A stretch of 64,000 nucleotides of DNA from Eledone cirrhosa (lineage: Eukaryota). The translations under genes were made by a program, and so were the position numbers. Positions 1 to 58,513 of the stretch are shown here, in pieces (the stretch's first letter is position 1; every line of letters begins with the position of its first letter). The notes beneath the pieces are model-generated. The model was given only the letters and a program-made list of their open reading frames with translations, did not search any database and had not been told where the DNA came from. Location of the stretch: contig OZ024740.1 of NCBI GenBank assembly GCA_964016885.1, positions 279,620,001 through 279,684,000 on the forward strand. Reading direction: 5' to 3'.

Positions 1-3000
1 ATCCATTTTTTATTTGGTGATCCATTTTTTATTTGGGGGATCCATTTTTTATTTGGGTGATCCATTTTTTATTTGGGTGATCCATTTTTTATTTGGGTGA
101 TCCATTTTTTATTTGGGTGATCCATTTTTTATTTGGGGGATCCATTTTTTATTTGGGTGATCCATTTTTTATTTGGGGGATCCATTTTTTATTTGGGGGA
201 TCCATTTTTTATTTGGTGGATCCATTTTTTATTTGGGGGATCCATTTTTTATCTGGGGGATCCATTTTTTGGGGGGGGATCCATTTTATATTTGGGTGAT
301 CCATTTTTTATTTGGGTGATCCATTTTTTATTTGGGGGATCCATTTTTTATTTGGGTGATCCATTTTTTATTTGGGCGATCCATTTTTTATTTGGGTGAT
401 CCAATTTTTTATTTGGGTGATCCATTTTTTATTTGGGGGATCAATTTTTTATTTGGGTGATCCATTTTTTATTTGGGTGATCCATTTTTTATTTGGTGAT
501 CCATTTTTTATTTGGGGGATCCATTTTTTATTTGGGTGATCCATTTTTTATTTGGGTGATCCATTTTTTATTTTGGGAATCCATTTTTAATTTGGGTGAT
601 CCATTTTTTATTTGGGTGATCCATTTTTTATTTGGGTGATCCATTTTTTATTTGGGTGATCCATTTTTTATTTGGGGGATCCATTTTTTATTTGGGTGAT
701 CCATTTTTTATTTAGGGGATCCATTTTTTATTTGGGCCATCCATTTTTTATTTGGGGGATCCATTTTTTATTTGGTGGATCCATTTTTTATTTGGGGGAT
801 CCATTTTTTATTTGGGGGATCCATTTTTTATTTTGGGGATCCATTTTATATTTGGGTGATCCATTTTTTATTTGGGTGATCCATTTTTTATTTGGGGGAT
901 CCATTTTTTATTTGGGTGATCCATTTTTTATTTGGGGGATCCATTTTTTATTTCGGTGATCCATTTTTTATTTGGGGGATCCATTTTTTATTTGGGGGTT
1001 CCATTTTTTATTTGGGGGATCCATCAAACAAAAAATGGATCACCCAAATAAAAAGTGGATCACCTAAATAAAAAATGGATCACCCAAATAAAAAATGGAT
1101 CCACCAAATAAAAAATGGATCCCCCAAATAAAAAATAGATCACACAAATAAAAAATGGATCCCCCAATTAAAAAATGGATCACCCAAATAAAAAATGGAT
1201 CACCCAAATAAAAAATGGATAACCCAAATAAAAAATGGATCCCCCAAATAAAAAATGGATCACCCAAATAAAAAATGGATCCCCCAAATAAAAAAGGGAT
1301 CCATTTTTTATTTGGGTGATCCATTTTTTATTTGGGGGATCCATTTTTTATTTGGCTTATCCATTTTTATTTGGGTGATCCATTTTTTATTTGGGTGATC
1401 CATTTTTTATTTGGGTGATTCATTTTTTATTTGGGTGATCCATTTTTAATTTTTGGGATCCATTTTTTATTTGGTGGATCCATTTTTTATTTGGGTGATC
1501 CATTTTTTATTTGGGTGATCCATTTTTTATTTGGGTGATCCATTTTTTATTTGATGGATCCCCAAATAAAAAATGGAACCCCCAAATAAAAAATGGATCC
1601 CCCAAATAAAAAATGGATCACCCAAATAAAAAATGGATCCCCCAAATAAAAAATGGATCCCCCAAATAAAAAATGAATCCCTGAAATAAAAAATGGATCC
1701 CCCAAATAAAAAAGGGATCCATTTTTTATTTGGGTGATCCATTTTTTATTTGGGGGGATCCGTTTTTTATTTGGGCGATCCATTTTTTATTTGGGTGATC
1801 CATTTTTTATTTGGGTGATCCATTTTTTATTTGGGGGATCCATTTTTTATTTGGGCGATCCATTTTTTATTTGGGTGATCCATTTTTTATTTGGGGGATC
1901 CATTTTTTATTTGGGGGATCCATTTTTTATTTGGGGGATCCATTTTTTATTTACGGGATCCATTTTTTATTTGGGTGATCCATTTTTTATTTGGGGGATC
2001 CAGTTTTTATTTGGGTGATCCATTTTTTGTTTGGGTGATCCATTTTTATTTTTTGGATCCATTTTTTATTTGGGCGATCCATTTTTTATTTGGTGATCCA
2101 TTTTGTATTTGGGGGATCCATTTTTTATTTGGGTGATCCATTTTTTATTTGGGGGATCCATTTTTTATTTGGGTGATCCATTTTTTATTTGGTGATCCAT
2201 TTTGTATTTGGGGGATCCATTTTTTATTTGGGTGATCCATTTTTTATTTGGGTGATCCATTTTTTATTTGAGGGATCCATTTTTTATTTGGGGGATCCAT
2301 TTTTTATTTGATGGATCTCCCAAATAAAAAATACATCACCCAAATAAAAAATGGATCCCCCAAATAAAAAATGGATCACCCAAATAAAAAATGGATCCCC
2401 CAAATAAAAAATGGATCACACAAATAAAAAATGGATCACCCAAATAAAAAATGAATCACCCAAATATAAAATAGATCACCCAAATAAAAAATGGATCCCC
2501 CAAATAAAAAATGGATCCCTTTTTTATTTGTCGGATCCATTTTTTATTTGGGGGATCCATTATCTATTTGAGTGATCCATTTTTTATTTGTGGGATCCAT
2601 TTTTTATTTGGGTGATCCATTTTTTATTTGGGGGATCCATTTTTTATTTGGGTGATCCATTTTCTATTTGGTGATCCATTTTTTATTTGGGGGATCCATT
2701 TTTTATTTGGGTGATCCATTTTTTATTTGGGTGATCCATTTTTTATTTGAGGGATCCATTTTTTATTTGGGGGATCCATTTTTTATTTGATGGATCTCCC
2801 AAATAAAAAATAGATCACCCAAATAAAAAATGGATCCCCCAAATAAAAAATGGATCACCCACATAGAAACTGGATCCCCCAAATAGAAAATGGATCCCCC
2901 CAAATAAAAAATGGATCCCCCAAATAAAAAATGGGTCACCCAAATAAAAATGGATCACCCAAATAAAAAATGGATCCCCCAAATAATAAAAAGAAACACC

Positions 3001-6000
3001 CAAATAAAAAATGGATCACCCAAATAAAAAATGCATCCTCCAAATAAAAAATGGATTACCCAAATAAAAAAAATCCTCCAAATAAAAAATGGATCACCCA
3101 AATAAAAAATGGATCACCCAAATAAAAAATGGATCCCCCAAATAAAAAATGGATCCCCCAAATAAAAAACGGATCCCCCAAATAAAAAATGGATCACCCA
3201 AATAAAAAATGGATCACCCAAATAAAAAATGGATCACCCAAATAAAAATTGGATCGCCCAAATAAAAAATGGATCCCCCAAATAAAAAATGGATCGCCCA
3301 AATAAAAAATGGATCCCCCAAATAAAAAATGGATCACCCAAATAAAAAATGGATCACCCAAATAAAAAATGGATCCCCAAAATAAAAAATGGATCACCCA
3401 AATAAAAAATGGATCCCTCAAATAAAAAAGGGATCACCCAAATAGAAAATGGATCACCCAAATAAAAAATGGATCCCCCAAATAAAAAATTGATCACCCA
3501 AATAAAAAATGGATCACCCAAATAACAAATGGATCCCCCAAATAAAAAATGGTTCACGAAATAAAAAATGGATCACCCAAATAAAAAATGGATCCCCCCA
3601 AATAAAAAATGGATCACCCAAATAAAAAATGGATCCCTTTTTTATTTAGCGGATCCATTTTTTATTTCGGGGATCCATTCTTTATCTGGGGGATCCATTT
3701 TTTATTTGGGTGATCCATTTTTTATTTGGGGGATCCATTTTTTATTTCGGTGATCCATTTTTTATTTGGGTGATCCATTTTTTATTTGGGGTTCCATTTT
3801 TTATTTGGGTGATCCATTTTTTATTTGGTGGATCCATTTTTTATTTGGGGGATCCATTTCTTATTTGGGTGATCCATTTTTTATTTGGGTGATCCATTTT
3901 TTATTTGGGGGATCAATTTTTTATTTGGGCGATCCATTTTTTATTTGGGTGACCCATTTTTTATTTGGTGATCCATTTTTTATTTGGGGGATCCATTTTT
4001 TATTTGGGTGATCCATTTTTTATTTGGGTGACCCATTTTTTATTTGGTGATCCATTTTTTATTTGGGTGATCCATTTTTTATTTGGGTGATCCATTTTTT
4101 ATTTGGGGGATCCGTTTTTTATTTGGGTGATCCATTTTTTATTTGGGGGATCCATTTTTTATTTGGGGGATCCATTTTTTATTTGGTGGATCCATTTTTT
4201 ATTTGGGGGATCCATTTTTTATTTGGGGGATCCATTTTTTGGGGGGGATCCATTTTATATTTGGGTGATCCATTTTTTATTTGGGTGATCCATTTTTTAT
4301 TTGGGGGATCCATTTTTTATTTGGGTGATCCATTTTTTATTTGGGCGATCCATTTTTTATTTGGGTGATCCAATTTTTTATTTGGGTGATCCATTTTTTA
4401 TTTGGGGGATCAATTTTTTATTTGGGTGATCCATTTTTTATTTGGGTGATCCATTTTTTATTTGGTGATCCATTTTTTATTTGGGGGATCCATTTTTTAT
4501 TTGGGTGATCCATTTTTTATTTGGGTGATCCATTTTTTATTTTGGGTATCCATTTTTAATTTGGGTTATCCATTTTTTATTTGGGTGATCCATTTTTTAT
4601 TTGGGTGATCCATTTTTTATTTGGGTGATCCATTTTTTATTTGGGGGATCCATTTTTTATTTGGGTGATCCATTTTTTATTTAGGGGATCCATTTTTTAT
4701 TTGGGCCATCCATTTTTTATTTGGGGGATCCATTTTTTATTTGGTGGATCCATTTATTATTTGGGGGATCCATTTTTTATTTGGGGGATCCATTTTTTAT
4801 TTTGGGGATCCATTTTATATTTGGGTGATCCATTTTTTATTTGGGTGATCCATTTTTTATTTGGGGGATCCATTTTTTATTTGGGTGATCCATTTTTTAT
4901 TTGGGGGATCCATTTTTTATTTCGGTGATCCATTTTTTATTTGGGGGATCCATTTTTTATTTGGGGGTTCCATTTTTTATTTGGGGGATCCATCAAACAA
5001 AAAATGGATCACCCAAATAAAAAATGGATCCCCCAAATAAAAAAGGGATCCATTTTTTATTTGGGTGATCCATTTTTTATTTGGGGGATCCATTTTTTAT
5101 TTGGCTTATCCATTTTTTATTTGGGTGATCCATTTTTTATTTGGGTGATCCATTTTTTATTTGGGTGATTCATTTTTTATTTGGGTGATCCATTTTTAAT
5201 TTTTGGGATCCATTTTTTATTTGGTGGATCCATTTTTTATTTGGGTGATCCATTTTTTATTTGGGTGATCCATTTTTTATTTGATGGATCCCCAAATAAA
5301 AAATGGAACCCCCAAATAAAAAATGGATCCCCCAAATAAAAAATGGATCACCCAAATAAAAAATGGATCCCCCAAATAAAAAATGGATCCCCCAAATAAA
5401 AAATGAATCCCTGAAATAAAAAATGGATCCCCCAAATAAAAAAGGGATCCATTTTTTATTTGGGTGATCCATTTTTTATTTGGGGGGATCCGTTTTTTAT
5501 TTGGGCGATCCATTTTTTATTTGGGTGATCCATTTTTTATTTGGGTGATCCATTTTTTATTTGGGGGATCCATTTTTTATTTGGGTGATCCATTTTTTAT
5601 TTGGGGGATCCATTTTTTATTTGGGGGATCCATTTTTTATTTGGGGGATCCATTTTTTATTTACGGGATCCATTTTTTATTTGGGTGATCCATTTTTTAT
5701 TTGGGGGATCCAGTTTTTATTTGGGTGATCCATTTTTTGTTTGGGTGATCCATTTTTATTTTTTGGATCCATTTTTTATTTGGGCGATCCATTTTCTATT
5801 TGGTGATCCATTTTGTATTTGGGGGATCCATTTTTTATTTGGGTGATCCATTTTTTATTTGGGGGATCCATTTTTTATTTGGGTGATCCATTTTTTATTT
5901 GGTGATCCATTTTGTATTTGGGGGATCCATTTTTTATTTGGGTGATCCATTTTTTATTTGGGTGATCCATTTTTTATTTGAGGGATCCATTTTTTATTTG

Positions 6001-7640
6001 GGGGATCCATTTTTTATTTGATGGATCTCCCAAATAAAAAATACATCACCCAAATAAAAAATGGATCCCCCAAATAAAAAATGGATCACCCAAATAAAAA
6101 ATGGATCCCCCAAATAAAAAAAAAATGGATCACACAAATAAAAAATGGATCACCCAAATAAAAAATGAATCACCCAAATATAAAATAGATCACCCAAATA
6201 AAAAATGGATCCCCCAAATAAAAAATGGATCCCTTTTTTATTTGTCGGATCCATTTTTTATTTGGGGGATCCATTATCTATTTGAGTGATCCATTTTTTA
6301 TTTGTGGGATCCATTTTTTATTTGGGTGATCCATTTTTTATTTGGGGGATCCATTTTTTATTTGGGTGATCCATTTTCTATTTGGTGATCCATTTTTTAT
6401 TTGGGGGATCCATTTTTTATTTGGGTGATCCATTTTTTATTTGGGTGATCCATTTTTTATTTGAGGGATCCATTTTTTATTTGGGGGATCCATTTTTTAT
6501 TTGATGGATCTCCCAAATAAAAAATAGATCACCCAAATAAAAAATGGATCCCCCAAATAAAAAATGGATCACCCACATAGAAACTGGATCCCCCAAATAG
6601 AAAATGGATCCCCCCAAATAAAAAATGGATCCCCCAAATAAAAAATGGATCACCCAAATAAAAATGGATCACCCAAATAAAAAATGGATCCCCCAAATAA
6701 TAAAAAGAAACACCCAAATAAAAAATGGATCACCCAAATAAAAAATGCATCCTCCAAATAAAAAATGGATTACCCAAATAAAAAAAAATCCTCCAAATAA
6801 AAAATGGATCACCCAAATAAAAAATGGATCACCCAAATAAAAAATGGATCCCCCAAATAAAAAATGGATCCCCCAAATAAAAAACGGATCCCCCAAATAA
6901 AAAATGGATCACCCAAATAAAAAATGGATCACCCAAATAAAAAATGGATCACCCAAATAAAAATTGGATCGCCCAAATAAAAAATGGATCCCCCAAATAA
7001 AAAATGGATCGCCCAAATAAAAAATGGATCCCCCAAATAAAAAATGGATCACCCAAATAAAAAATGGATCACCCAAATAAAAAATGGATCCCCCAAATAA
7101 AAAATGGATCACCCAAATAAAAAATGGATCCCTCAAATAAAAAATGGATCACCCAAATAAAAAATGGATCACCCAAATAAAAAATGGATCCCCCAAATAA
7201 AAAATTGATCCCCCCAAATAAAAAATGGATCACCCAAATAAAAAATGGATCCCTTTTTTATTTAGCGGATCCATTTTTTATTTCGGGGATCCATTCTTTA
7301 TCTGGGGGATCCATTTTTTATTTGGGTGATCCATTTTTTATTTGGGGGATCCATTTTTTATTTCGGTGATCCATTTTTTATTTGGGTGATCCATTTTTTA
7401 TTTGGGGTTCCATTTTTTATTTGGGTGATCCATTTTTTATTTGGTGGATCCATTTTTTATTTGGGGGATCCATTTCTTATTTGGGTGATCCATTTTTTAT
7501 TTGGGTGATCCATTTTTTATTTGGGGGATCAATTTTTTATTTGGGCGATCCATTTTTTATTTGGGTGACCCATTTTTTATTTGGTGATCCATTTTTTATT
7601 TGGGGGATCCATTTTTTATTTGGGTGATCCATTTTTTATT
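1..7640. repeat. Higher-order repeat, two copies of a ~3.6-4.0 kb unit containing four inverted blocks each
   Basis: Same ordered variants and near-identical ORF strings recur: 672/4641, 1527/5257, 1891/5601, 2815/6529, 3710/7326. The offset shrinks from 3969 to 3616 through internal monomer deletions. Confidence 0.9.
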
Positions 7641-10600
7641 TCGGTGATCCATTTTTTATTTGGGTGATCCATTTTTTATTTGGGTGATCCATTTTTTATT
7701 TGGGGGATCCATTTTTTATTTGGGTGATCCATTTTTTATTTGGGGGATCCATTTTTTATTTGGGGGATCCATTTTTTATTTGGTGGATCCATTTTTTATT
7801 TGGGGGATCCATTTTTTATTTGGGGGATCCATTTTTTGGGGGGATCCATTTTATATTTGGGTGATCCATTTTTTATTTGGGTGATCCATTTTTTATTTGG
7901 GGGATCCATTTTTTATTTGGGTGATCCATTTTTTATTTGGGCGATCCATTTTTTATTTGGGTGATCCAATTTTTTATTTGGGTGATCCATTTTTTATTTG
8001 GGGGATCAATTTTTTATTTGGATGATCCATTTTTTATTTGGGTGATCCATTTTTTATTTGGTGATCCATTTTTTATTTGGGGGATCCATTTTTTATTTGG
8101 GTGATCCATTTTTTATTTGGGTGATCCATTTTTTATTTTGGGTATCCATTTTTAATTTGGGTGATCCATTTTTTATTTGGGTGATCCATTTTTTATTTGG
8201 GTGATCCATTTTTTATTTGGGTGATCCATTTTTTATTTGGGGGATCCATTTTTTATTTGGGTGATCCATTTTTTATTTAGGGGATCCATTTTTTATTTGG
8301 GCCATCCATTTTTTATTTGGGGGATCCATTTTTTATTTGGTGGATCCATTTATTATTTGGGGGATCCATTTTTTATTTGGGGGATCCATTTTTTATTTTG
8401 GGGATCCATTTTATATTTGGGTGATCCATTTTTTATTTGGGTGATCCATTTTTTATTTGGGGGATCCATTTTTTATTTGGGTGATCCATTTTTTATTTGG
8501 GGGATCCATTTTTTATTTCGGTGATCCATTTTTTATTTGGGGGATCCATTTTTTATTTGGGGGTTCCATTTTTTATTTGGGGGATCCATCAAACAAAAAG
8601 TGGATCACCTAAATAAAAAATGGATCACCCAAATAAAAAATGGATCCACCAAATAAAAAATGGATCCCCCAAATAAAAAATAGATCACACAAATAAAAAA
8701 TGGATCCCCCAATTAAAAAATGGATCACCCAAATAAAAAATGGATCACCCAAATAAAAAATGGATAACCCAAATAAAAAATGGATCCCCCAAATAAAAAA
8801 TGGATCACCCAAATAAAAAATGGATCCCCCAAATAAAAAAGGGATCCATTTTTTATTTGGGTGATCCATTTTTTATTTGGGGGATCCATTTTTTATTTGG
8901 CTTATCCATTTTTTATTTGGGTGATCCATTTTTTATTTGGGTGATCCATTTTTTATTTGGGTGATTCATTTTTTATTTGGGTGATCCATTTTTAATTTTT
9001 GGGATCCATTTTTTATTTGGTGGATCCATTTTTTATTTGGGTGATCCATTTTTTATTTGGGTGATCCATTTTTTATTTGGGTGATCCATTTTTTATTTGA
9101 TGGATCCCCAAATAAAAAATGGAACCCCCAAATAAAAATGGATCCCCCAAATAAAAAATGGATCACCCAAATAAAAAATGGATCCCCCAAATAAAAAATG
9201 GATCCCCCAAATAAAAAATGAATCCCTGAAATAAAAAATGGATCCCCCAAATAAAAAAGGGATCCATTTTTTATTTGGGTGATCCATTTTTTATTTGGGG
9301 GGATCCGTTTTTTATTTGGGCGATCCATTTTTTATTTGGGTGATCCATTTTTTATTTGGGTGATCCATTTTTTATTTGGGGGATCCATTTTTTATTTGGG
9401 CGATCTATTTTTTATTTGGGTGATCCATTTTTTATTTGGGGGATCCATTTTTTATTTGGGGGATCCATTTTTTATTTGGGGGATCCATTTTTTATTTAGG
9501 GGATCCATTTTTTATTTGGGTGATCCATTTTTTATTTGGGGGATCCAGTTTTTATTTGGGTGATCCATTTTTTGTTTGGGTGATCCATTTTTATTTTTTG
9601 GATCCATTTTTTATTTGGGCGATCCATTTTTTATTTGGGGGATCCATTTTTTATTTGGGGGATCCATTTTTTATTTGGTGATCCATTTTTTATTTGGGGG
9701 ATCCATTTTTTATTTGGGTGATCCATTTTTTATTTGGGTGATCCATTTTTTATTTTGGGTATCCATTTTTAATTTGGGTGATCCATTTTTTATTTGGGTG
9801 ATCCATTTTTTATTTGGGTGATCCATTTTTTATTTGGGTGATCCATTTTTTATTTGGGGGATCCATTTTTTATTTGGGTGATCCATTTTTTATTTAGGGG
9901 ATCCATTTTTTATTTGGGCCATCCATTTTTTATTTGGGGGATCCATTTTTTATTTGGTGGATCCATTTATTATTTGGGGGATCCATTTTTTATTTGGGGG
10001 ATCCATTTTTTATTTTGGGGATCCATTTTATATTTGGGTGATCCATTTTTTATTTGGGTGATCCATTTTTTATTTGGGGGATCCATTTTTTATTTGGGTG
10101 ATCCATTTTTTATTTGGGGGATCCATTTTTTATTTCGGTGATCCATTTTTTATTTGGGGGATCCATTTTTTATTTGGGGGTTCCATTTTTTATTTGGGGG
10201 ATCCATCAAACAAAAAATGGATCACCCAAATAAAAAGTGGATCACCTAAATAAAAAATGGATCACCCAAATAAAAAATGGATCCACCAAATAAAAAATGG
10301 ATCCCCCAAATAAAAAATAGATCACACAAATAAAAAATGGATCCCCCAATTAAAAAATGGATCACCCAAATAAAAAATGGATCACCCAAATAAAAAATGG
10401 ATAACCCAAATAAAAAATGGATCCCCCAAATAAAAAATGGATCACCCAAATAAAAAAGGGATCACCCAAATAAAAAAGGGATCCATTTTTTATTTGGGTG
10501 ATCCATTTTTTATTTGGGGGATCCATTTTTTATTTGGCTTATCCATTTTTTATTTGGGTGATCCATTTTTTATTTGGGTGATCCATTTTTTATTTGGGTG

Positions 10601-13600
10601 ATTCATTTTTTATTTGGGTGATCCATTTTTAATTTTTGGGATCCATTTTTTATTTGGTGGATCCATTTTTTATTTGGGTGATCCATTTTTTATTTGGGTG
10701 ATCCATTTTTTATTTGGGTGATCCATTTTTTATTTGATGGATCCCCAAATAAAAAATGGAACCCCCAAATAAAAAATGGATCCCCCAAATAAAAAATGGA
10801 TCACCCAAATAAAAAATGGATCCCCCAAATAAAAAATGGATCCCCCAAATAAAAAATGAATCCCAGAAATAAAAAATGGATCCCCCAAATAAAAAAGGGA
10901 TCCATTTTTTATTTGGGGGATCCATTTTTTATTTGGGGGATCCATTTTTTATTTAGGGGATCCATTTTTTATTTGGGTGATCCATTTTTTATTTGGGGGA
11001 TCCAGTTTTTATTTGGGTGATCCATTTTTTGTTTGGGTGATCCATTTTTATTTTTTGGATCCATTTTTTATTTGGGCGATCCATTTTTTATTTGGGGGAT
11101 CCATTTTTTATTTGGGGGATCCATTTTTTATTTGGGGGATCCATTTTTTATTTGGGTGATCAATTTTTTATTTGGTGATCCATTTTGTATTTGGGGGATC
11201 CATTTTTTATTTGGGTGATCCATTTTTTATTTGGGGGATCCATTTTTTATTTGGGTGATCCATTTTTTATTTGGTGATCCATTTTGTATTTGGGGGATCC
11301 ATTTTTTATTTGGGTGATCCATTTTTTATTTGGGTGATCCATTTTTTATTTGAGGGATCCATTTTTTATTTGGGGGATCCATTTTTTATTTGGGGGATCC
11401 ATTTTTTATTTGATGGATCTCCCAAATAAAAAATACATCACCCAAATAAAAAATGGATCCCCCAAATAAAAAATGGATCACCCAAATAAAAAATGGATCC
11501 CCCAAATAAAAAATGGATCACACAAATAAAAAATGGATCACCCAAATAAAAAATGAATCACCCAAATATAAAATAGATCACCCAAATAAAAAATGGATCC
11601 CCCAAATAAAAAATGGATCCCTTTTTTATTTGGCGGATCCATTTTTTATTTGGGGGATCCATTATCTATTTGAGTGATCCATTTTTTATTTGTGGGATCC
11701 ATTTTTTATTTGGGTGATCCATTTTTTATTTGGGGGATCCATTTTTTATTTGGGTGATCCATTTTTTATTTGGTGATCCATTTTTTATTTGGGGGATCCA
11801 TTTTTTATTTGGGCGATCCATTTTTTATTTGGGTGACCCATTTTTTATTTGGTGATCCATTTTTTATTTGGGGGATCCATTTTTTATTTGGGTGATCCAT
11901 TTTTTATTTGGGTGATCCATTTTTTATTTGGGTGATCCATTTTTTATTTGGGTGATCCATTTTTTATTTGGGGGATCCATTTTTTATTTGGGTGATCCAT
12001 TTTTTATTTGGGGGATCCATTTTTTATTTGGGGGATCCATTTTTTATTTGGTGGATCCATTTTTTATTTGGGGGATCCATTTTTTATTTGGGGGATCCAT
12101 TTTTTGGGGGGGATCCATTTTATATTTGGGTGATCCATTTTTTATTTGGGTGATCCATTTTTTATTTGGGGGATCCATTTTTTATTTGGGTGATCCATTT
12201 TTTATTTGGGCGATCCATTTTTTATTTGGGTGATCCAATTTTTTATTTGGGTGATCCATTTTTTATTTGGGGGATCAATTTTTTATTTGGATGATCCATT
12301 TTTTATTTGGGTGATCCATTTTTTATTTGGTGATCCATTTTTTATTTGGGGGATCCATTTTTTATTTGGGTGATCCATTTTTTATTTGGGTGATCCATTT
12401 TTTATTTTGGGTATCCATTTTTAATTTGGGTGATCCATTTTTTATTTGGGTGATCCATTTTTTATTTGGGTGATCCATTTTTTATTTGGGTGATCCATTT
12501 TTTATTTGGGGGATCCATTTTTTATTTGGGTGATCCATTTTTTATTTAGGGGATCCATTTTTTATTTGGGCCATCCATTTTTTATTTGGGGGATCCATTT
12601 TTTATTTGGTGGATCCATTTATTATTTGGGGGATCCATTTTTTATTTGGGGGATCCATTTTTTATTTTGGGGATCCATTTTATATTTGGGTGATCCATTT
12701 TTTATTTGGGTGATCCATTTTTTATTTGGGGGATCCATTTTTTATTTGGGTGATCCATTTTTTATTTGGGGGATCCATTTTTTATTTCGGTGATCCATTT
12801 TTTATTTGGGGGATCCATTTTTTATTTGGGGGTTCCATTTTTTATTTGGGGGATCCATCAAACAAAAAATGGATCACCCAAATAAAAAGTGGATCACCTA
12901 AATAAAAAATGGATCACCCAAATAAAAAATGGATCCACCAAATAAAAAATGGATCCCCCAAATAAAAAATAGATCACACAAATAAAAAATGGATCCCCCA
13001 ATTAAAAAATGGATCACCCAAATAAAAAATGGATCACCCAAATAAAAAATGGATAACCCAAATAAAAAATGGATCCCCCAAATAAAAAATGGATCACCCA
13101 AATAAAAAATGGATCCCCCAAATAAAAAAGGGATCCATTTTTTATTTGGGTGATCCATTTTTTATTTGGGGGATCCATTTTTTATTTGGCTTATCCATTT
13201 TTTATTTGGGTGATCCATTTTTTATTTGGGTGATCCATTTTTTATTTGGGTGATTCATTTTTTATTTGGGTGATCCATTTTTAATTTTTGGGATCCATTT
13301 TTTATTTGGTGGATCCATTTTTTATTTGGGTGATCCATTTTTTATTTGGGTGATCCATTTTTTATTTGGGTGATCCATTTTTTATTTGATGGATCCCCAA
13401 ATAAAAAATGGAACCCCCAAATAAAAAATGGATCCCCCAAATAAAAAATGGATCACCCAAATAAAAAATGGATCCCCCAAATAAAAAATGGATCCCCCAA
13501 ATAAAAAATGAATCCCTGAAATAAAAAATGGATCCCCCAAATAAAAAAGGGATCCATTTTTTATTTGGGTGATCCATTTTTTATTTGGGGGGATCCGTTT

Positions 13601-46300: not shown

Positions 46301-49300
46301 AAATAAAAAATGGATCACCCAAATAAAAAATGGATCCCCCAAATAAAAAATGGATCACCCAAATAAAAAATGGATCCCCCAAATACAAAATGGATCCCCC
46401 AAATAAAAAATGGATCCCCCAAATAAAAAAGGGAACCATTTTTTATTTGGGTGATCCATTTTTTATTTGGGTGATCAATTTTTTATTTGGGTGATTCATT
46501 TTTTATTTGGGTGATCCATTTTTAATTTTTGGGATCCATTTTTTATTTGGTGGATCCATTTTTTATTTGGGTGATCCATTTTTTATTTGGGTGATCCATT
46601 TTTTATTTGAGGGATCCATTTTTTATTTGGGGGATCCATTTTTTATTTGATGGATCTCCCAAATTAAAAATAGATCACCCAAATAAAAAATGGATCCCCC
46701 AAATAAAAAATGGATCACCCAAATAAAAACTGGATCCCCCAAATAAAAAATGGATCCCCCCAAATAAAAAATGGATCCCCCCAAATAAAAAATGGATCCC
46801 CTAAATAAAAAATGGATCACCCAAATAAAAAATGGATCACCCAAATAAAAAATGGATCACCCAAATAAAAAATAGATCGCCCAAATAAAAAATGGATCCA
46901 AAAAATAAAAAATGGATCGCCCAAATAAAAAATGGATCCCCCAAATAAAAAATGGATCACCCAAATAAAAAATGGATCACCCAAATAAAAAATGGATCGC
47001 CCAAATAAAAAACGGATCCCCCTAAATAAAAAATGGATCACCCAAATAAAAAATGGATCCCTTTTTTATTTGGGGGATCCATTTTTTATTTCAGGGATTC
47101 ATTTTTTATTTGGGGGATCCATTTTTTATTTGGTGGATCCATTTTTTATTTGGGTGATCCATTTTTTGTTTGGGGGATCCATTTTTTATTTGGGGGTTCC
47201 ATTTTATATTTGGGGATCCATCAAATAAAAAATGGATCACCCAAATAAAAAATGGATCACCCAAATAAAAAATGGATCCCCCAAATAAAAAATGGATCCC
47301 CCAAATAAAAAATGAATCCCTGAAATAAAAAATGGATCCCCCAAATAAAAAATGAATCCCTGAAATAAAAAATGGATCCCCCAAATAAAAAATGGATCCC
47401 CCAAATAAAAAATGGATCACCCAAATAAAAAATGGATCCCTTTTTTATTTGGGGGATCCATTTTTTATTTCAGGGATTCATTTTTTATTTGGGGGATCCA
47501 TTTTTTATTTCAGGGATTCATTTTTTATTTGGGGGATCCATTTTTTATTTGGGGGATCCATTTTTTATTTGGGTGATCCATTTTTTATTTGGGTGATCCA
47601 TTTTTTATTTGATGGATCCCCAAATATAAAATGGAACCCCCAAATAAAAAATGGATCCCCCAAACAAAAAATGGATCACCCAAATAAAAAATGGATCCCC
47701 CAAATAAAAAATGGATCCCCCAAATAAAAAATGAATCCCTGAAATAAAAAATGGATCCCCCAAATAAAAAAGGGATCCATTTTTTATTTGGGTGATCCAT
47801 TTTTTATTTAGGGGGATCCGTTTTTTATTTGGGCGATCCATTTTTTATTTGGGTGATCCATTTTTTATTTGGGTGATCCATTTTTTATTTGGGGGATCCA
47901 TTTTTTATTTGGGCGATCCATTTTTTATTTGGGTGATCCATTTTTTATTTGGGGGATCCATTTTTTATTGGGGGGATCCATTTTTTATTTGGGGGATCCA
48001 TTTTTTATTTAGGGGATCCATTTTTTATTTGGGTGATCCATTTTTTATTTGGGGGATCCAGTTTTTATTTGGCTGATCCATTTTTTGTTTGGGTGATCCA
48101 TTTTTATTTTTTGGATCCATTTTTTATTTGGGCGATCCATTTTTTATTTGGGTGATCCATTTTTTATTTGGGGGATCCATTTTTTATTTGGGTGATCCAT
48201 TTTTTATTTGGTGATCCATTTTGTATTTGGGGGATCCATTTTTTATTTGGGTGATCCATTTTTTATTTGGGGGATCCATTTTTTATTTGGGTGATCCATT
48301 TTTTATTTGGTGATCCATTTTGTATTTGGGGGATCCATTTTTTATTTGGGTGATCCATTTTTTATTTGGGTGATCCATTTTTTATTTGAGGGATCCATTT
48401 TTTATTTGGGGGATCCATTTTTTATTTGATGGATCTCCCAAATAAAAAATACATCACCCAAATAAAAAATGGATCCCCCAAATAAAAAATGGATCACCCA
48501 AATAAAAAATGGATCCCCCAAATAAAAAATGGATCACCCAAATAAAAAGTGGATCACCCAAATAAAAAATGAATCACCCAAATATAAAATAGATCACCCA
48601 AATAAAAAATGGATCCCCCAAATAAAAAATGGATCCCTTTTTTATTTGGCGGATCCATTTTTTATTTGGGGGATCCATTATCTATTTGAGTGATCCATTT
48701 TTTATTTGTGGGATCCATTTTTTATTTGGGTGATCCATTTTTTATTTGGGGGATCCATTTTTTATTTGGGTGATCCATTTTTTATTTGGTGATCCATTTT
48801 TTATTTGGGGGATCCATTTTTTATTTGGGTGATCCATTTTTTATTTGGGTGATCCATTTTTTATTTGAGGGATCCATTTTTTATTTGGGGGATCCATTTT
48901 TTATTTGATGGATCTCCCAAATAAAAAATAGATCACCCAAATAAAAAATGGATCCCCCAAATAAAAAATGGATCACCCAAATAAAAACTGGATCCCCCAA
49001 ATAAAAAATGGATCCCCCCAAATAAAAAATGGATCCCCCCAAATAAAAAATGGATCCCCTAAATAAAAAATGGATCACCCAAATAAAAAATGGATCACCC
49101 AAATAAAAAATGGATCACCCAAATAAAAAATAGATCGCCCAAATAAAAAATGGATCCAAAAAATAAAAAATGGATCACCCAAATAAAAAATGGATCACCC
49201 CCCCAAAAAATCGATCCCCAAATAAAAAATGGATCACCCAAATAATAAATGGATCCCCCAAATAAAAAATGGATCACCCAAATAAAAAATGGATCCCCCA

Positions 49301-49395
49301 AATAAAAAATGGATCCCCCAAATAAAAAATGGATCCCCCCCAATAAAAAATGGATCACCCCCCAAAAAAATGGATCACCCAAATAAAAAATGGAT
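40898..49395 (+). repeat. Left arm (~8.5 kb) of giant inverted duplication
   Basis: ORFs mirror those in 50012-58513 on the opposite strand with a near-constant coordinate sum of 99409-99430, e.g. 42672..42890+/56539..56757-, 43607..43822-/55607..55822+, 48881..49102-/50307..50528+. Confidence 0.93.
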
Positions 49396-50011
49396 CACCC
49401 AAATAAAAAATGGATCCCCCAAATAAAAAATGGATCACCCAAATAAAAAATGGATCACCCAAATAAAAAATGGACCCCCAAATAAAAAATGGATCACCCA
49501 AATAAAAAATGGATCACACAAATAAAAAATGGATCCCCGAAATAAAAAATGGATCCGCCAAATAAAAAATGGATCCATTTTTTATTTGGGTGATCCATTT
49601 TTTATTTAGGGTGATCCGTTTTTATTTGGGTGATCCATTTTTTATTTGGGTGATTCCTTTTTTATTTGGGTGATCCATTTTTTATTTGGGTGATCCATTT
49701 TTTATTTGAGTGATCCATTCTTTATTTGAGGGATCCATTTTTTATTTGGGTGATCCATTTTTTATTTGGGGGATCCATTTTTTATTTGGGCGATCCATTT
49801 TTTATTTGGGTGATCCATTTTTTATTTGGGTGATCCATTTTTTATTTGGGGGATCCATTTTTTATTTGGGGGATCCATTTTTTATTTGGGTGATCCATTT
49901 TTTATTTGGGGGATCCATTTTTAATTTGGGTGATCCATTTTTTATTTGGTTGATCCATTTTTTATTTGGGTGATCCATTTTTTATTTGAGGGATCCATTT
50001 TTTATTTTTTG
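43570..50011. repeat. Direct duplication with 3978-bp offset (~43570-46030 repeated at ~47550-50011)
   Basis: ORF pairs 43607/47585, 43814/47792, 44903/48881, 45117/49095 and 45732/49710 all differ by 3978. Confidence 0.9.
46903..47930. repeat. Near-perfect ~1-kb palindrome (arms ~490 bp, ~48-bp spacer, centre ~47416)
   Basis: Mirror ORF pairs sum to 94833: 46992..47228+/47605..47841-, 47033..47248+/47585..47800-, 47106-/47727+. The doubled TGAATCCCTG variant is mirrored as doubled CAGGGATTCA. Confidence 0.9.
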
Positions 50012-53000
50012 GATCCATTTTTTATTTGGGTGATCCATTTATTTGGGGGGTGATCCATTTTTTATTGGGGGGGGATCCATTTTTTATTTGGGGGATCCAT
50101 TTTTTATTTGGGGGATCCATTTTTTATTTGGGTGATCCATTTTTTATTTGGGGGATCCATTTTTTATTTGGGTGATCCATTTTTTATTTGGGGATCGATT
50201 TTTTTGGGGGGTGATCCATTTTTTATTTGGGTGATCCATTTTTTATTTTTTGGATCCATTTTTTATTTGGGCGATCTATTTTTTATTTGGGTGATCCATT
50301 TTTTATTTGGGTGATCCATTTTTTATTTGGGTGATCCATTTTTTATTTAGGGGATCCATCTTTTATTTGGGGGGATCCATTTTTTATTTGGGGGGATCCA
50401 TTTTTTATTTGGGGGATCCAGTTTTTATTTGGGTGATCCATTTTTTATTTGGGGGATCCATTTTTTATTTGGGTGATCTATTTTTTATTTGGGAGATCCA
50501 TCAAATAAAAAATGGATCCCCCAAATAAAAAATGGATCCCTCAAATAAAAAATGGATCACCCAAATAAAAAATGGATCACCCAAATAAAAAATGGATCCC
50601 CCAAATAAAAAATGGATAACCAAATAAAAAATGGATCACCCAAATAAAAAATGGATCCCCCAAATAAAAAATGGATCACCCAAATAAAAAATGGATCCCA
50701 CAAATAAAAAATGGATCACTCAAATAGATAATGGATCCCCCAAATAAAAAATGGATCCGCCAAATAAAAAAGGGATCCATTTTTTATTTGGGGGATCCAT
50801 TTTTTATTTGGGTGATCTATTTTATATTTGGGTGATTCATTTTTTATTTGGGTGATCCACTTTTTATTTGGGTGATCCATTTTTTATTTGGGGGATCCAT
50901 TTTTTATTTGGGTGATCCATTTTTTATTTGGGGGATCCATTTTTTATTTGGGTGATGTATTTTTTATTTGGGAGATCCATCAAATAAAAAATGGATCCCC
51001 CAAATAAAAAATGGATCCCTCAAATAAAAAATGGATCACCCAAATAAAAAATGGATCACCCAAATAAAAAATGGATCCCCCAAATACAAAATGGATCACC
51101 AAATAAAAAATGGATCACCCAAATAAAAAATGGATCCCCCAAATAAAAAATGGATCACCCAAATAAAAAATGGATCCCCCAAATACAAAATGGATCACCA
51201 AATAAAAAATGGATCACCCAAATAAAAAATGGATCCCCCAAATAAAAAATGGATCACCCAAATAAAAAATGGATCGCCCAAATAAAAAATGGATCCAAAA
51301 AATAAAAATGGATCACCCAAACAAAAAATGGATCAGCCAAATAAAAACTGGATCCCCCAAATAAAAAATGGATCACCCAAATAAAAAATGGATCCCCTAA
51401 ATAAAAAATGGATCCCCCAAATAAAAAATGGATCCCCCCAATAAAAAATGGATCCCCCAAATAAAAAATGGATCACCCAAATAAAAAATGGATCGCCCAA
51501 ATAAAAAATGGATCCCCCAAATAAAAAATGGATCACCCAAATAAAAAATGGATCACCCAAATAAAAAATGGATCGCCCAAATAAAAAACGGATCCCCCTA
51601 AATAAAAAATGGATCACCCAAATAAAAAATGGATCCCTTTTTTATTTGGGGGATCCATTTTTTATTTCAGGGATTCATTTTTTATTTGGGGGATCCATTT
51701 TTTATTTGGGGGATCCATTTTTTATTTGGGTGATCCATTTTTTGTTTGGGGGATCCATTTTTTATTTGGGGGTTCCATTTTATATTTGGGGATCCATCAA
51801 ATAAAAAATGGATCACCCAAATAAAAAATGGATCACCCAAATAAAAAATGGATCCCCCAAATAAAAAATGGATCCCCCAAATAAAAAATGAATCCCTGAA
51901 ATAAAAAATGGATCCCCCAAATAAAAAATGAATCCCTGAAATAAAAAATGGATCCCCCAAATAAAAAAGGGATCCATTTTTTATTTGGGTGATCCATTTT
52001 TTATTTGGGGGATCCATTTTTTATTTGGGGGATCCATTTTTTATTTCAGGGATTCATTTTTTATTTGGGGGATCCATTTTTTATTTCAGGGATTCATTTT
52101 TTATTTGGGGGATCCATTTTTTATTTGGGGGATCCATTTTTTATTTGGGTGATCCATTTTTTATTTGGGTGATCCATTTTTTATTTGATGGATCCCCAAA
52201 TATAAAATGGAACCCCCAAATAAAAAATGGATCCCCCAAACAAAAAATGGATCACCCAAATAAAAAATGGATCCACCAAATAAAAAATGGATCCCCCAAA
52301 TAAAAAATGAATCCCTGAAATAAAAAATGGATCCCCCAAATAAAAAAGGGATCCATTTTTTATTTGGGTGATCCATTTTTTATTTAGGGGGATCCGTTTT
52401 TTATTTGGGCGATCCATTTTTTATTTGGGTGATCCATTTTTTATTTGGGTGATCCATTTTTTATTTGGGGGATCCATTTTTTATTTGGGCGATCCATTTT
52501 TTATTTTTTGGATCCATTTTTTATTTGGGCGATCTATTTTTTATTTGGGTGATCCATTTTTTATTTGGGTGATCCATTTTTTATTTGGGTGATCCATTTT
52601 TTATTTAGGGGATCCATTTTTTATTTGGGGGGATCCATTTTTTATTTGGGGGGATCCATTTTTTATTTGGGGGATCCAGTTTTTATTTGGGTGATCCATT
52701 TTTTATTTGGGGGATCCATTTTTTATTTGGGTGATCTATTTTTAATTTGGGAGATCCATCAAATAAAAAATGGATCCCCCAAATAAAAAATGGATCCCTC
52801 AAATAAAAAATGGATCACCCAAATAAAAAATGGATCACCCAAATAAAAAATGGATCACCCAAATAAAAAATGGATCCACCAAATAAAAAATGGATCCCAA
52901 AAATTAAAAATGGATCACCCAAATAAAAAATGAATCACCCAAATAAAAAATTGATCACCCAAATAAAAAATGGATCACCCAAATAAAAAATGGTTCCCTT

Positions 53001-56000
53001 TTTTATTTGGGGGATCCATTTTTTATTTGGGGGATCCATTTTGTATTTGGGGGATCCATTTTTTATTTGGGTGATCCATTTTTTATTTGGGGGATCCATT
53101 TTTTATTTGGGTGATCCATTTTTTATTTGGGTGATCCATTTTTTATTTGGGGGTCCATTTTTTATTTCGGTTATCCATTTTTTATTTGGGTGATCCATTT
53201 TTTATTTGGGGGATCCAGTTTTTATTTGGATGATCCATTTTTTATTTGGGTGATCCATTTTTTATTTGATGGATCCCCCAAATAAAAAATGGAACCCCGA
53301 AATAAAAAATGGATACCCCAAATAAAGAATGGATCACCCAAATAAAAAATGGATCACCCAAATAAAAAATGGATCCCCCAAATAAAAAATGGATCCAAAA
53401 AATAAAAAATGGATCCCTCAAATAAAAAATGGATCACCCAAATAAAAAATGGATCACCCAAATAAAAAATGGATCACCCAAATTAAAAATGGATCCCCCA
53501 AATAAAAAATGGATCACCCAAATAAAAAATGGATCCCCCAAATAAAAAATGGATCCCCCAAATAAAAAATGGATCACCCAAATAAAAAATGGATCACCCA
53601 AATAAAAAATGGATCGCCCAAATAAAAAATGGATCCCCCAAATAAAAAATGGATCACCCAAATAAAAAATGGATCCCTCAAATAAAGAATGGATCACTCA
53701 AATAAAAAATGGATCACCCAAATAAAAAATGGATCACCCAAATAAAAAAGGAATCACCCAAATAAAAAATGGATCACCCAAATAAAAACGGATCACCCTA
53801 AATAAAAAATGGATCACCCAAATAAAAAATGGATCCATTTTTTATTTGGCGGATCCATTTTTTATTTCGGGGATCCATTTTTTATTTGTGTGATCCATTT
53901 TTTATTTGGGTGATCCATTTTTTATTTGGGGGTCCATTTTTTATTTGGGTGATCCCGTTTTTATTTGGGTGATCCATTGTTTATTTGGGGGATCCATTTT
54001 TTATTTGGGTGATCCATTTTTTATTTGGGTGATCCATTTTTTGGGGGGGTGATCCATTTTTTATTGGGGGGGATCCATTTTTTATTTGGGGTATCCATTT
54101 TTTATTTGGGGGATCCATTTTTTATTTGGGTGATCCATTTTTTATTTGGGGGATCCATTTTTTATTTGGGTGATCCATTTTTTATTTGGGGATCGATTTT
54201 TTGGGGGGGTGATCCATTTTTTATTTGGGTGATCCATTTTTTATTTTTTGGATCCATTTTTTATTTGGGCGATCTATTTTTTATTTGGGTGATCCATTTT
54301 TTATTTGGGTGATCCATTTTTTATTTGGGTGATCCATTTTTTATTTAGGGGATCCATTTTTTATTTGGGGGGATCCATTTTTTATTTGGGGGGATCCATT
54401 TTTTATTTGGGGGATCCAGTTTTTATTTGGGTGATCCATTTTTTATTTGGGGGATCCATTTTTTATTTGGGTGATCTATTTTTTATTTGGGAGATCCATC
54501 AAATAAAAAATGGATCCCCCAAATAAAAAATGGATCCCTCAAATAAAAAATGGATCACCCAAATAAAAAATGGATCACCCAAATAAAAAATGGATCCCCC
54601 AAATAAAAAATGTATCACCAAATAAAAAATGGATCACCCAAATAAAAAATGGATCCCCCAAATAAAAAATGGATCACCCAAATAAAAAATGGATCCCACA
54701 AATAAAAAATGGATCACTCAAATAGATAATGGATCCCCCAAATAAAAAATGGATCCGCCAAATAAAAAAAGGATCCATTTTTTATTTGGGGGATCCATTT
54801 TTTATTTGGGTGATCTATTTAATATTTGGGTGATTCATTTTTTATTTGGGTGATCCACTTTTTATTTGGGTGATCCATTTTTTATTTGGGGGATCCATTT
54901 TTTATTTGGGTGATCCATTTTTTATTTGGGGGATCCATTTTTTATATGGGTGATGTATTTTTTATTTGGGAGATCCATCAAATAAAAAATGGATCCCCCA
55001 AATAAAAAATGGATCCCTCAAATAAAAAATGGATCACCCAAATAAAAAATGGATCACCCAAATAAAAAATGGATCCCCCAAATACAAAATGGATCACCAA
55101 ATAAAAAATGGATCACCCAAATAAAAAATGGATCCCCCAAATAAAAAATGGATCACCCAAATAAAAAATGGATCCCCCAAATACAAAATGGATCACCAAA
55201 TAAAAAATGGATCACCCAAATAAAAAATGGATCCCCCAAATAAAAAATGGATCACCCAAATAAAAAATGGATCGCCCAAATAAAAAATGGATCCAAAAAA
55301 TAAAAATGGATCACCCAAACAAAAAATGGATCAGCCAAATAAAAACTGGATCCCCCAAATAAAAAATGGATCACCCAAATAAAAAATGGATCCCCTAAAT
55401 AAAAAATGGATCCCCCAAATAAAAAATGGATCCCCCCAATAAAAAATGGATCCCCCAAATAAAAAATGGATCACCCAAATAAAAAATGGATCGCCCAAAT
55501 AAAAAATGGATCCCCCAAATAAAAAATGGATCACCCAAATAAAAAATGGATCACCCAAATAAAAAATGGATCGCCCAAATAAAAAACGGATCCCCCTAAA
55601 TAAAAAATGGATCACCCAAATAAAAAATGGATCCCTTTTTTATTTGGGGGATCCATTTTTTATTTCAGGGATTCATTTTTTATTTGGGGGATCCATTTTT
55701 TATTTGGGGGATCCATTTTTTATTTGGGTGATCCATTTTTTGTTTGGGGGATCCATTTTTTATTTGGGGGTTCCATTTTATATTTGGGGATCCATCAAAT
55801 AAAAAATGGATCACCCAAATAAAAAATGGATCACCCAAATAAAAAATGGATGACCCAAATAAAAAATGGATCACCCAAATAAAAAATGGATCACCCAAAT
55901 AAAAAATGGATCCACCAAATAAAAAATGGATCCCAAAAATTAAAAATGGATCACCCAAATAAAAAATGAATCACCCAAATAAAAAATGGATCTCCCAAAT

Positions 56001-58513
56001 AAAAAATGTATCCCCCAAATAAAAAATGGATCGCCCAAATAAAAAATGGATCACCCAAATAAAAAATGGATCACCCAAATATAATATGGATCCCCCAAAT
56101 AAAAAATGGATCCCCCAAATAAAAAATTGATCACCCAAATAAAAAATGGATCCCCCAAATAAAAAAGGGATCCATTTTTTATTTGGGTGATCCATTTTTT
56201 ATTTGGGTGATCCATTTTTTATTTGGGGAATCCATTTTTTATTTGGGTGATCCAATTTTTATTTGGGTGATCTATTTTTTATTTGGGGGATCCATTTTTT
56301 ATTTGGGTTATCCATTTTTTATTTGGGTGATCCATTTTTTATTTGGGTGATCCATTTTTTATTTGGGGGATCCATTTTTTATTTGTGTGATCTATTTTTT
56401 ATTTGGGGGATCCATTTTTTATTTGGTGGATCCATTTTTTATTTGGGTGATCCATTTTTTATTTGGGTGATACATTTTTTGTTTGGGTGATCCATTTTTT
56501 ATTTGGGTGATACATTTTTTATTTGGGGGATCCATTTTTTATTTAGGTGATCCACTTTTTATTTGGGTGATCCATTTTTTGTTTGATGGATCCCCCAAAT
56601 AAAAAATGGAACCCCCAAATAAAAAATGGATCCCCCAAATAAAAAATGGATCACCGAAAAAAAAATTGATCCCCCAAATAAAAAATGGATCACCCAAATA
56701 AAAAATGGATCCCCCAAATAAAAAATGGATCACCCAAATAAAAAATGGATCACCCAAATATAAAATGGATCCCCAAAATAAAAAATGGATCCCCTAAATA
56801 AAAAATGGATCCCCTAAATAAAAAATGGATCCACCAAATAAAAAATGGATCCCCCATATAAAAATGGATCGCCCAAATAAAAAATGGATCCTCCAAATAA
56901 AAAATGGATCACCCAAATAAAAAATGGATCCCCCAAATAAAAAATGGATTACCCAAATAAAAAATGGATCACCCAAATAAAAAATGGATCACCCAAATAA
57001 AAAATTGATCCCCCAAATAAAAAATGGATCACCCAAATAAAAAATGGATCACCCAAATAAAAAATGGATCGCCCAAATAAAAAATGGATCACCCAAATAA
57101 AAAATGGATCCCCCAAATAAAAAATGGATCACCTAAATAAAAAATGGATCACCCAAATATAAAATGGATCCCCCCCAAAAATATGATCCCCCAAATAAAA
57201 AATGGATCCCCCAAATAAAAAATCGATCCACCAAATAAAAAATGGATCCCCCAAATAAAAAATGGATCCCCCAAATAAAAAATGGATCACCCAAATAAAA
57301 AATGAATCCCCCAAATAAAAAATGGATCACCCAAATAAAAAATGGATCACCCAAATAAAAAATGGATCACCCAAATAAAAAATGGATCACCCAAATTAAA
57401 TATGGATACCTCAAATAAAAAGGGATCACCCAAATAAAAAATGGATCACCCAAATAAAAAATGAATCCCCCAAATAAAAAATGGATCACCAAATAAAAAA
57501 TGGATCACCCAAATAAAAAATGGATCACCCAAATAAAAAATTGATCCCCCAAATAAAAAATGGATCACCCAAATAAAAAATGGATCACCCAAATAAAAAA
57601 TGGATCCCCCAAATAAAAAATGGATCCACCAAATAAAAAATAGATCACCCAAATAAAAAATGGAACCCCAAATAAAAAATGGATCACCCAAATAAAAAAT
57701 GGATCACCGAAATAAAAAATGGATCCCCCAAATAAAAAATGGATCACCCAAATAAAAAATGGATCCCCCAAATAAAAAATGGATCACCCAAATGAAAAAT
57801 GGATCACCCAAATAAAAAATGGATCCCCCAAATAAAGAATGGATCCCCGAAATAAAAAATGGATCCGCTAAATAAAAAAGGGATCCATTTTTTATCTGGG
57901 TGATCCATTTTTTATTTGGGGGGATCCATTTTTTATTTAGGTGTTCCACTTTTTATTTGGGTGATACATTTTTTGTTTTTATGGATCACCCAAATAAAAA
58001 ATGGAACCCCCAAATAAAAAATGGATCCCCCAAATACAAAATGGATCACCGTAAAAAAAATTGATCCCCCAAATAGAAAATGAATCACCCAAATAAAAAA
58101 TGGATCCCCCAAATAAAAAATGGATCCCCAAAATAAAAAATGGATCCCCCAAATAAAAAATGGATCCCCCAAATAAAAAATGGATCACCCAAATAAAAAA
58201 TGGATCGCCCAAATAAAAAATGGACCCCAAAAATACAAAATGGATCCCCCAAATAAAAAATGGATCCCCCAAATAAAAAATGGATCACCCAAATAAAAAT
58301 GGATCACCCAAACAAAAAATGGATCACCCAAATAAAAACTGGATCCCCCAAATAAAGAATGGAACACCCAAATAAAAAATGGATCCCCCAAATAAAAAAT
58401 GGATCCCCCAAATAAAAAATGGATCCCCCAAATAAAAAATGGATCACCCAAATAAAAAATGGATCGCCCAAATAAAAAACGGATCCCCCCAAATAAAAAA
58501 TGGATCACCCAAA
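50012..58513 (-). repeat. Right arm (~8.5 kb) of giant inverted duplication
   Basis: Reverse complement of 40898-49395 including private variants: GGGTCATCC ~43563 / GGATGACCC ~55848, CCCATATAAAA ~44479 / TTTTATATGGG ~54940, GATCCATAAAAACAAA ~41443 / TTTGTTTTTATGGATC ~57972. Confidence 0.93.
51479..52506. repeat. Second copy of the ~1-kb palindrome (centre ~51992) inside the right giant arm
   Basis: Mirror ORF pairs sum to 103985: 51568..51804+/52181..52417- and 51609..51824+/52161..52376-. Confidence 0.9.

Follow-up and report, generated by a model that had tools for sequence, protein, structure and literature searches.

The 133 strand switches in the window (the whole 64-kb stretch of DNA analysed here) are very probably copies of two junctions, which are likely to derive from one ~80-bp inversion and to have multiplied through duplication and through later inversions between monomers that face opposite ways. 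The flip-dense domain is likely to record how the repeat has turned over, and not to be a hairpin lattice built for a purpose, with the lattice itself probably a by-product of turnover that feeds on its own products.

Monomer-by-monomer strand annotation resolved the window into 3,170 copies of a 20-bp satellite, 1,808 in forward and 1,362 in reverse orientation, arranged in 134 blocks (Table 1). There are two main monomer variants which contrast at the base preceding GATC, and one of these yields the 6-bp self-complementary GGATCC, the longest self-complementary word in the monomer. The original prediction of about 130 orientation reversals, one every ~430 bp, agrees with our count and with a mean switch spacing of 432 bp (median 282 bp, range 63–1,352 bp); the shorter flank at a switch has a median of 203 bp and a 90th percentile of 483 bp. 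The largest gap between monomer anchors is no more than 42 bp, and foreign DNA is therefore absent at the switches, as had also been proposed, while the three junction k-mers named at that time have 63, 48 and 11 occurrences. The claim that the pivot always lies at GATC holds for the window, where GATC is unbroken in 126 of the 133 junctions, but not for the surrounding 224-kb array (381 junctions in total, no gap >60 bp), in which 21 junctions pivot at A/T runs; furthermore, the crossover at tail-to-tail switches is 3 nt beyond GATC, in a register set by the GATC dyad. The domain first described as spanning positions 1–57,984 is indeed flip-dense but is part of this larger array, as switching resumes after a one-way tract of ~7.5 kb.

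Table 1. Coordinates of the satellite features in the window (positions are those of the window; strand as annotated).
Feature	Position	Strand	Details
20-bp satellite, part of larger array	1..64000	.	224-kb array, G000:C1:279,476,352-279,700,118
Flip-dense domain	1014..57991	.	133 switches (the first and last at these positions), tail-to-tail (67) alternating with head-to-head (66); monomer annotation
One-way tract	57991..64000	-	299 monomers in window and 76 beyond; internal control for folding
T junction example, tail-to-tail founder	1014..1025	+	Orientation b (...GGATCCAT/CAAAT...), 31/67; window annotation
T junction example, reverse complement	1553..1563	-	Orientation a, 36/67; window annotation
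H junction example, head-to-head	1297..1302	+	Symmetry-breaking T>G beside apex; 54/66 (30 and 24 per orientation); window annotation
S junction example, head-to-head	49571..49576	.	Perfect apex ATGGATCCAT; 11/66; window annotation
Exact tandem duplication	11854..18960	+	3,573 bp at offset 3,534, 100% identical, several junctions per copy
Direct duplication	43578..50030	+	2,475 bp at offset 3,978, 99.7% identical
Macro-palindrome left arm	40890..49400	+	~8.5 kb, both ends inside ordinary monomers
Macro-palindrome spacer	49400..50010	.	~0.6 kb, satellite alone, one S junction off-centre
Macro-palindrome right arm	50010..58510	-	17 mismatches and one 20-bp indel across 7.5 kb aligned globally

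All of the tail-to-tail junctions in the window (67/67) carry one derived 2-nt signature (type T), which is found in both orientations and has 391 exact matches in the 3.0-Gb assembly; the symmetric GATC tail-to-tail pivot has no exact match in the same assembly and is seen in none of the 67. Over 120 bp, 115 of the 133 junctions have an identical twin elsewhere in the window, and the T and H/S types together account for 360 of the 381 junctions in the 224-kb array. The same T and H junctions make up 12 of the 13 found at C5:64.41–64.44 Mb, and all 67 junctions sampled at C1:296.30–296.60 Mb are either T (33) or S (34). In four 10-kb stretches of this last locus, T and S bound 2–4 inverted monomers in a single orientation, and the right end of the 224-kb array is a mirror image of this arrangement; we regard these cassettes as the surviving founder-like state. 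Nested variant lineages of the junctions are common to C1 loci 16 Mb apart and to C5. We infer that S came before H, and as the S copies in the window have a flank variant in common with H copies, they may be reversions. About six rarer junction types indicate that a new junction occasionally forms; two or three of these, and both array borders, are at or beside GATC, with other rare types at A/T-run sites.

The 224-kb array has a 19-bp satellite upstream and a 196-bp satellite downstream. At C1:295.3 and 296.2 Mb the 20-bp satellite alternates with a 22-bp satellite, a mixing that is not found in the 224-kb array, and since this second satellite forms the spacer of the interrupted arrays at C1:295.3 Mb, a reading of these arrays as a Foldback-type transposon was abandoned. 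A further ~1.2 Mb of the 20-bp satellite on C5 is head-to-tail, and here no switches were seen among 6,149 sampled monomers (~40% of them G-type), which provides a control for chance. Head-to-tail copies make up the bulk of the family, with three loci on C1 and C5 holding roughly 35,000 of 37,243 forward dimers (extrapolated counts, among the matches listed). Among the matches listed, the family appears to be restricted to these three loci on the two contigs, which makes it a poor fit to a repeat common to all centromeres. A literature search with two 16–17-letter pieces of the monomer gave no match, and the family is left without a name here; the two border loci had no matches in Rfam. Among public sequencing runs, four from one study contain 0.29–0.44 of the sampled words and may come from the source sample; they do not enter the evidence here.

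The duplications listed in Table 1 carry junctions with them, though duplicates which are 100% identical could in part be assembly duplication. The macro-palindrome is 17.6 kb long with 99.8% identity and its arms are themselves orientation mosaics; a monomer-by-monomer comparison of its ends shows that it was left by one inversion whose ends are hidden inside ordinary monomers.

A founding event of the following kind would account for both junctions. A 3' end in GGATCCAT may have paired by fold-back with the GGATCC in a monomer upstream of it and been copied onward over about four monomers before rejoining the template at another GGATCC, which would leave an asymmetric tail-to-tail junction and a symmetric head-to-head one. 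A natural sequence of head-to-tail monomers that stops at GGATCCAT is predicted to fold at GGATCC with a 14-nt loop (MFE −5.1 kcal/mol), so that microhomology permitting intrastrand priming is present at the junction, and the next templated bases after this fold are CAAAT, matching the junction. Against this, extension would have to start from an end with a 2-nt mismatch, a geometry predicted at only −2.8 kcal/mol, and the expected mirror pattern was found in just 1 of 51 cassettes (using a two-state marker only, and with flanks that have turned over), with the G-type partner monomer present in 35 of 51. A clean in-place inversion was rejected as the founding event, since outside the microhomology the tail-to-tail joint has a hybrid sequence. 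Spread would then have continued by kb-scale duplication of junction-bearing segments, as is seen directly in the window and in the copies at other C1 and C5 loci, and by exchange or template switching between forward and reverse monomers. The latter would invert the DNA between them without making a new junction, turning junctions round and lengthening minority blocks, as is evident for the macro-palindrome and probable in general. A toy token model, in which no new junctions arise by construction, produced both junction orientations in 6 of 6 runs with silent inversions and 0 of 2 without (block median 4–28 monomers), and speaks to sufficiency only.

The original prediction that each switch is a spacer-less quasi-palindrome is supported, and single strands are predicted to fold strongly: the 45 junctions modelled, out of 133, gave ~−84 kcal/mol for every 200 nt, versus ~−12 kcal/mol for 14 one-way pieces. 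The further suggestion of a cruciform lattice is weakened by apex structure, with perfect symmetry of ≤3 bp at 122 of the 133 junctions (best 16 bp). For 14 of the 67 tail-to-tail junctions the computed centre fell away from GATC, mostly where 1 bp is deleted, which did not lengthen the perfect arms. In a mirror-copy test at small junctions, monomers at mirror positions were 0.85–0.94 alike versus 0.90 for random monomers, which likewise weakens the lattice, and recent fold-back at every switch was rejected for this reason. Single-stranded DNA is where hairpins are chiefly predicted.

The possibility that the lattice is under selection, with hairpins or cruciforms organising centromeric or heterochromatic chromatin, is in our view very improbable. 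The strong predicted folding and the position of the C1 array within a satellite cluster are what one might expect, and dyad-rich or mixed-orientation satellites are described, in the sections available to us, as CENH3-bound in Chionographis (PMC10264360) and as putatively (peri)centromeric in Tribolium. Selection could also be reflected in the association of short arms with perfect apexes (34/34) and of long arms with broken ones (55/66), but two or three lineages underlie this pattern, and long arms also accompany the 11 perfect apexes of the window. The family is restricted as described above and runs mostly head-to-tail, apexes have little perfect symmetry, and copying accounts for the conservation of the junctions. 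A broader version, in which replication hairpins lead to silent inversions, broken apexes are favoured with long arms, and sub-kb dyads have a chromatin role on C1, making a self-propagating fold-back lattice under selection, is very unlikely. If true, the full series of stages, beginning with a one-way array and passing by way of a single cassette to a dense lattice, would be present in one genome, and C5 would be a built-in control for dyad structure versus sequence in recruiting centromeric or heterochromatin proteins.

The idea that flips recur at GATC as a hot spot, with most switches independent fold-backs, gains something from both founder junctions being in the GATC register and from the rare junctions and array borders found at or beside it. 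However, symmetric pivots would then be expected often, yet none of the tail-to-tail junctions is symmetric, the arms are not mirror copies, other rare junctions lie at A/T runs, and the sampled C5 monomers include no flips despite their G-type content. We consider this very improbable and largely refuted already, and the implied ~130 separate flips give way to copies of two founders. GATC is also the site of enzymes in common Hi-C use, and this coincidence, together with the fully identical duplicates, might suggest that the switches are artefacts of amplification chimeras, religation after GATC cutting (Hi-C or cloning) or misassembly. This is extremely doubtful: chimeras should give scattered positions and religation symmetric or doubled-GATC joints, neither of which occurs among the 133 spacers, and the symmetric form has no exact match in the assembly. 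Junction lineages nested across distant loci also argue against artefacts, as does a large palindrome whose 0.6-kb spacer and 17 mismatches are unlike a mirrored read. Copying of two junctions remains our preferred explanation.

Short satellites in mixed orientation are known from Chionographis japonica, where, in the material seen, Chio1 and Chio2 (23- and 28-bp monomers) are CENH3-bound on all 12 chromosomes (PMC10264360, PMC12722358). They resemble the 20-bp satellite in having short monomers with a short dyad and frequently alternating mixtures of forward and reverse arrays; in contrast, the 20-bp family is found on C1 and C5 among the matches listed. Small inverted triplications and inversions templated by fold-back (PMC11724301, PMC13334657), to which ODIRA (PMC10766183) may be added as a related process, reportedly have a 6-bp breakpoint junction and a ~160-bp inverted part, and are likewise short inverted copies made at microhomology, with GGATCC and the ~80-bp cassette of a comparable size order. 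These are single events in yeast or tumours, whereas the product here has been fixed, amplified and become a substrate for larger silent inversions. The parts of PMC8091179 and PMC5932611 available to us describe other arrangements than this one.

The closest precedent is provided by the macro-dyad satellites of Tribolium freemani and T. madens (PMC12581902, PMC13081366). According to the portions consulted, these have opposite-orientation subarrays of several kb, mostly two per array, with two satellites intermingled in the (peri)centromeric regions of nearly all chromosomes. Their inversion-site types are few and highly conserved, and in T. freemani these types are common to non-homologous chromosomes and there is no extraneous sequence at the switch; the sites are seen as possibly functional or as reflecting how repeats spread, and a hairpin or cruciform role is a proposal only. 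PMC13427858 does no more than cite the Tribolium work. The array described here is similarly uninterrupted, with a few conserved junction types across chromosomes, but differs in its much shorter blocks (median 282 bp and at most 1,352 bp between switches), the 381 switches in one array, the 20-bp monomer, the mostly one-way family and the preserved founder-like cassette, and satellites are mixed at C1:295.3 and 296.2 Mb rather than in the 224-kb array. A Tribolium-like pattern can be traced here to a single small inversion that was multiplied by copying and whose intermediate stages persist in the genome; conserved inversion sites therefore require no selection. As one monomer here has two architectures (224 kb flip-dense and ~1.2 Mb one-way), it offers a natural control for dyad symmetry versus chromatin, fragility and CENP-A loading. 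What is new compared with Tribolium is the sub-kb scale and the preservation of intermediate stages.

The 20-bp satellite fills the entire window, where annotation by monomer core gave 1,808 forward-facing monomers and 1,362 reverse-facing ones, grouped into 134 blocks with 133 switches between them (the first at 1,014 and the last at 57,991, with a mean spacing of 432 bp, a median of 282 and a range of 63–1,352). Monomer anchors lie no more than 42 bp apart, so no foreign DNA is present, and 126 of the 133 junctions retain an intact GATC; the switch number, spacing, lack of foreign DNA and GATC pivot described in the original prediction are accurate for the window.

These switches are copies. 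A pure GATC pivot is expected to leave a symmetric tail-to-tail joint, and this form was found at none of the 67 tail-to-tail junctions in the window and had no exact match genome-wide. All 67 carry an identical 2-nt signature (T junctions), reading ...GGATCCAT with CAAAT directly across the joint (31 copies) or the reverse complement of this (36 copies), and the signature form has 391 matches in the genome, 135 of them within the array that includes the window. The 66 head-to-head joints comprise 54 with T>G beside the apex (H junctions), one with T>A and 11 that are perfect (S junctions). An identical twin over 120 bp exists within the window for 56 of the tail-to-tail and 59 of the head-to-head junctions, and direct duplications of 1–3.6 kb with 95–100% identity are scattered across it. 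We note that two duplications are mismatch-free (3,573 bp, window 11,854–18,960, and 2,680 bp, window 9,134–19,637) and are either very recent or assembly duplications.

Features of the 20-bp satellite family and neighbouring sequences (C1, C2 and C5 are contigs)
Feature	Location	Characteristics
20-bp satellite array including the window	C1:279,476,352-279,700,118	11,101 monomers, 381 junctions
Further 20-bp family loci	C1:295.25-296.6 Mb; C5:64.3-65.63 Mb	
Palindrome, 17.6 kb	window 40,890-58,510	arms about 40,890-49,400 and 50,010-58,510, spacer 0.6 kb
19-bp satellite	C1:279.460-279.476 Mb	50% GC; directly adjoins the 20-bp array
196-bp satellite, one-way	C1:279,700,123 to 280.0 Mb or further, and C2:244.32-244.33 Mb	48% GC; now and then interrupted by a ~100-bp insert of unrelated sequence; shares a GATC with the 20-bp array where the two join
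Composite units	C1:295.27-295.36 and 296.16-296.21 Mb	20-bp satellite in alternation with an A/T-rich satellite of 22 bp and a short 14–15-bp repeat; fixed transition points
Diverged 20-bp monomers without GATC	C1 ~296.6 Mb; C5 ~64.33-64.44 Mb	GC-richer; at array edges
Simple satellite, ~10 bp	C5:65.63-65.69 Mb	19% GC; directly follows the C5 array

We consider one micro-inversion followed by turnover to be the best explanation and a likely one, and the strand-switching feature is likely to be real. Amplification chimeras or cutting and religation at GATC do not fit, as the asymmetric junctions recur on two contigs, where their variants form nested lineages, and no doubled GATC occurs among the 133 junction spacers of the window. 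The assembly of 100%-identical duplicates may affect exact copy numbers. The micro-inversion itself, we infer, arose by fold-back at GGATCC; this word occurs in the G-type monomer, and the repeat contains no longer self-complementary one. A natural head-to-tail stretch ending GGATCCAT folds onto the GGATCC of the preceding monomer with a 14-nt loop, and the bases templated next are CAAAT, matching the T junction. A 3' end in this sequence would fold back and extend to produce the T junction, and if the strand rejoined its template about four monomers on, at a further GGATCC, the result would be a perfect head-to-head joint. It should be noted that this requires extension from an end with a 2-nt mismatch, and that a mirror-copy comparison recovered the exact pattern in one of 51 cassettes (the ~4 inverted monomers between two junctions). 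Fold-back inversions at microhomology have precedents in yeast and tumours (PMC11724301, PMC13334657).

Intermediate stages survive in the genome. At C1:296.30–296.60 Mb, T (33) and S (34) junctions account for all 67 sampled, and in four 10-kb stretches T–S pairs flank 2–4 inverted monomers in a single orientation; the right end of the window array is the mirror image of this pattern, with cassette variants in common. Twelve of 13 junctions at C5:64.33–64.45 Mb (92 kb) are the T and H types of the window, and the remaining ~1.2 Mb of the C5 array had no junctions among 6,149 monomers; the 144 kb sampled includes 21 kb past the array end. Moving from the C5 bulk to the window, junctions per 1,000 monomers number 0, 3, 22, 34 and 42. 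A/T-run sites carry 12 and 9 junction copies in the array around the window, and there are a few other rare independent junctions, some at GATC. Because such rarer junctions exist, switching 'always at GATC' holds as a description of the window but is a founder effect.

Once both orientations are present, any forward monomer forms an inverted repeat with any reverse one, and exchange within such a pair inverts the intervening sequence without a new junction. The 17.6-kb palindrome, absent from the original prediction, shows one such silent inversion: its arms are ~99.8% identical (17 mismatches and one 20-bp indel over 7.5 kb aligned) and both ends lie within ordinary monomers. In the window T and H combine in each of the four possible orientation pairs (16, 14, 14 and 10), and a toy model with silent inversions reproduces this mixing, which shows no more than that such inversions suffice.

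The proposed lattice of hairpins or cruciforms is upheld for strong predicted single-strand folding (about -84 kcal/mol per 200 nt across the 45 of 133 junctions folded, and about -12 for the one-way, head-to-tail tract) but weakened for standing cruciforms. Cruciforms extrude from duplex DNA most readily where the centre is near-perfect, and perfect central symmetry here is at most 3 bp at 67/67 tail-to-tail and 55/66 head-to-head apexes (10–16 bp at the other 11), with monomers at mirror positions about as similar as random pairs; hairpins in single-stranded DNA are therefore more plausible than standing cruciforms. Short arms have perfect apexes (34/34) and long arms broken ones (55/66), which hints that perfect long palindromes were lost, a pattern resting on two or three lineages and countered by 11 window copies.

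The window occupies C1:279,620,001-279,684,000. Within the 3.0-Gb assembly (C1 is 443 Mb) an exact dimer pattern matched 37,243 times forward and 4,883 times in reverse, and extrapolation from sampled rates places an estimated ~35,000 forward matches at the three loci of the 20-bp family. The 224-kb array on C1 lies between the 19-bp satellite upstream and the 196-bp satellite downstream, with GATC at or beside both borders. The ~50% GC of the 19-bp satellite continues back to C1:279.41 Mb, and stretch L021 holds a 200-N assembly gap. The GATC-less edge variants may represent an earlier layer of the family, and a 53%-GC stretch at C1:296.65 Mb resembles, by eye, a LINE-type reverse transcriptase region.

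Titles and opening abstracts, with few subscription journals covered, disclosed no sub-kb lattice traced to one inversion. In Chionographis, centromeric satellites of 23 and 28 bp combine arrays of both orientations (PMC10264360, PMC12722358), and their block sizes could be close to those here. Tribolium satellites have macro-dyad symmetries with conserved inversion sites, which in T. freemani are without spacer and common to several chromosomes, and such arrays are documented only in this genus according to the 2026 paper of the pair (PMC12581902, PMC13081366). Our composite 20-bp/22-bp units recall the intermingled cassettes of Tribolium, and the Eledone lattice works like the macro-dyad arrays, with blocks below their size.
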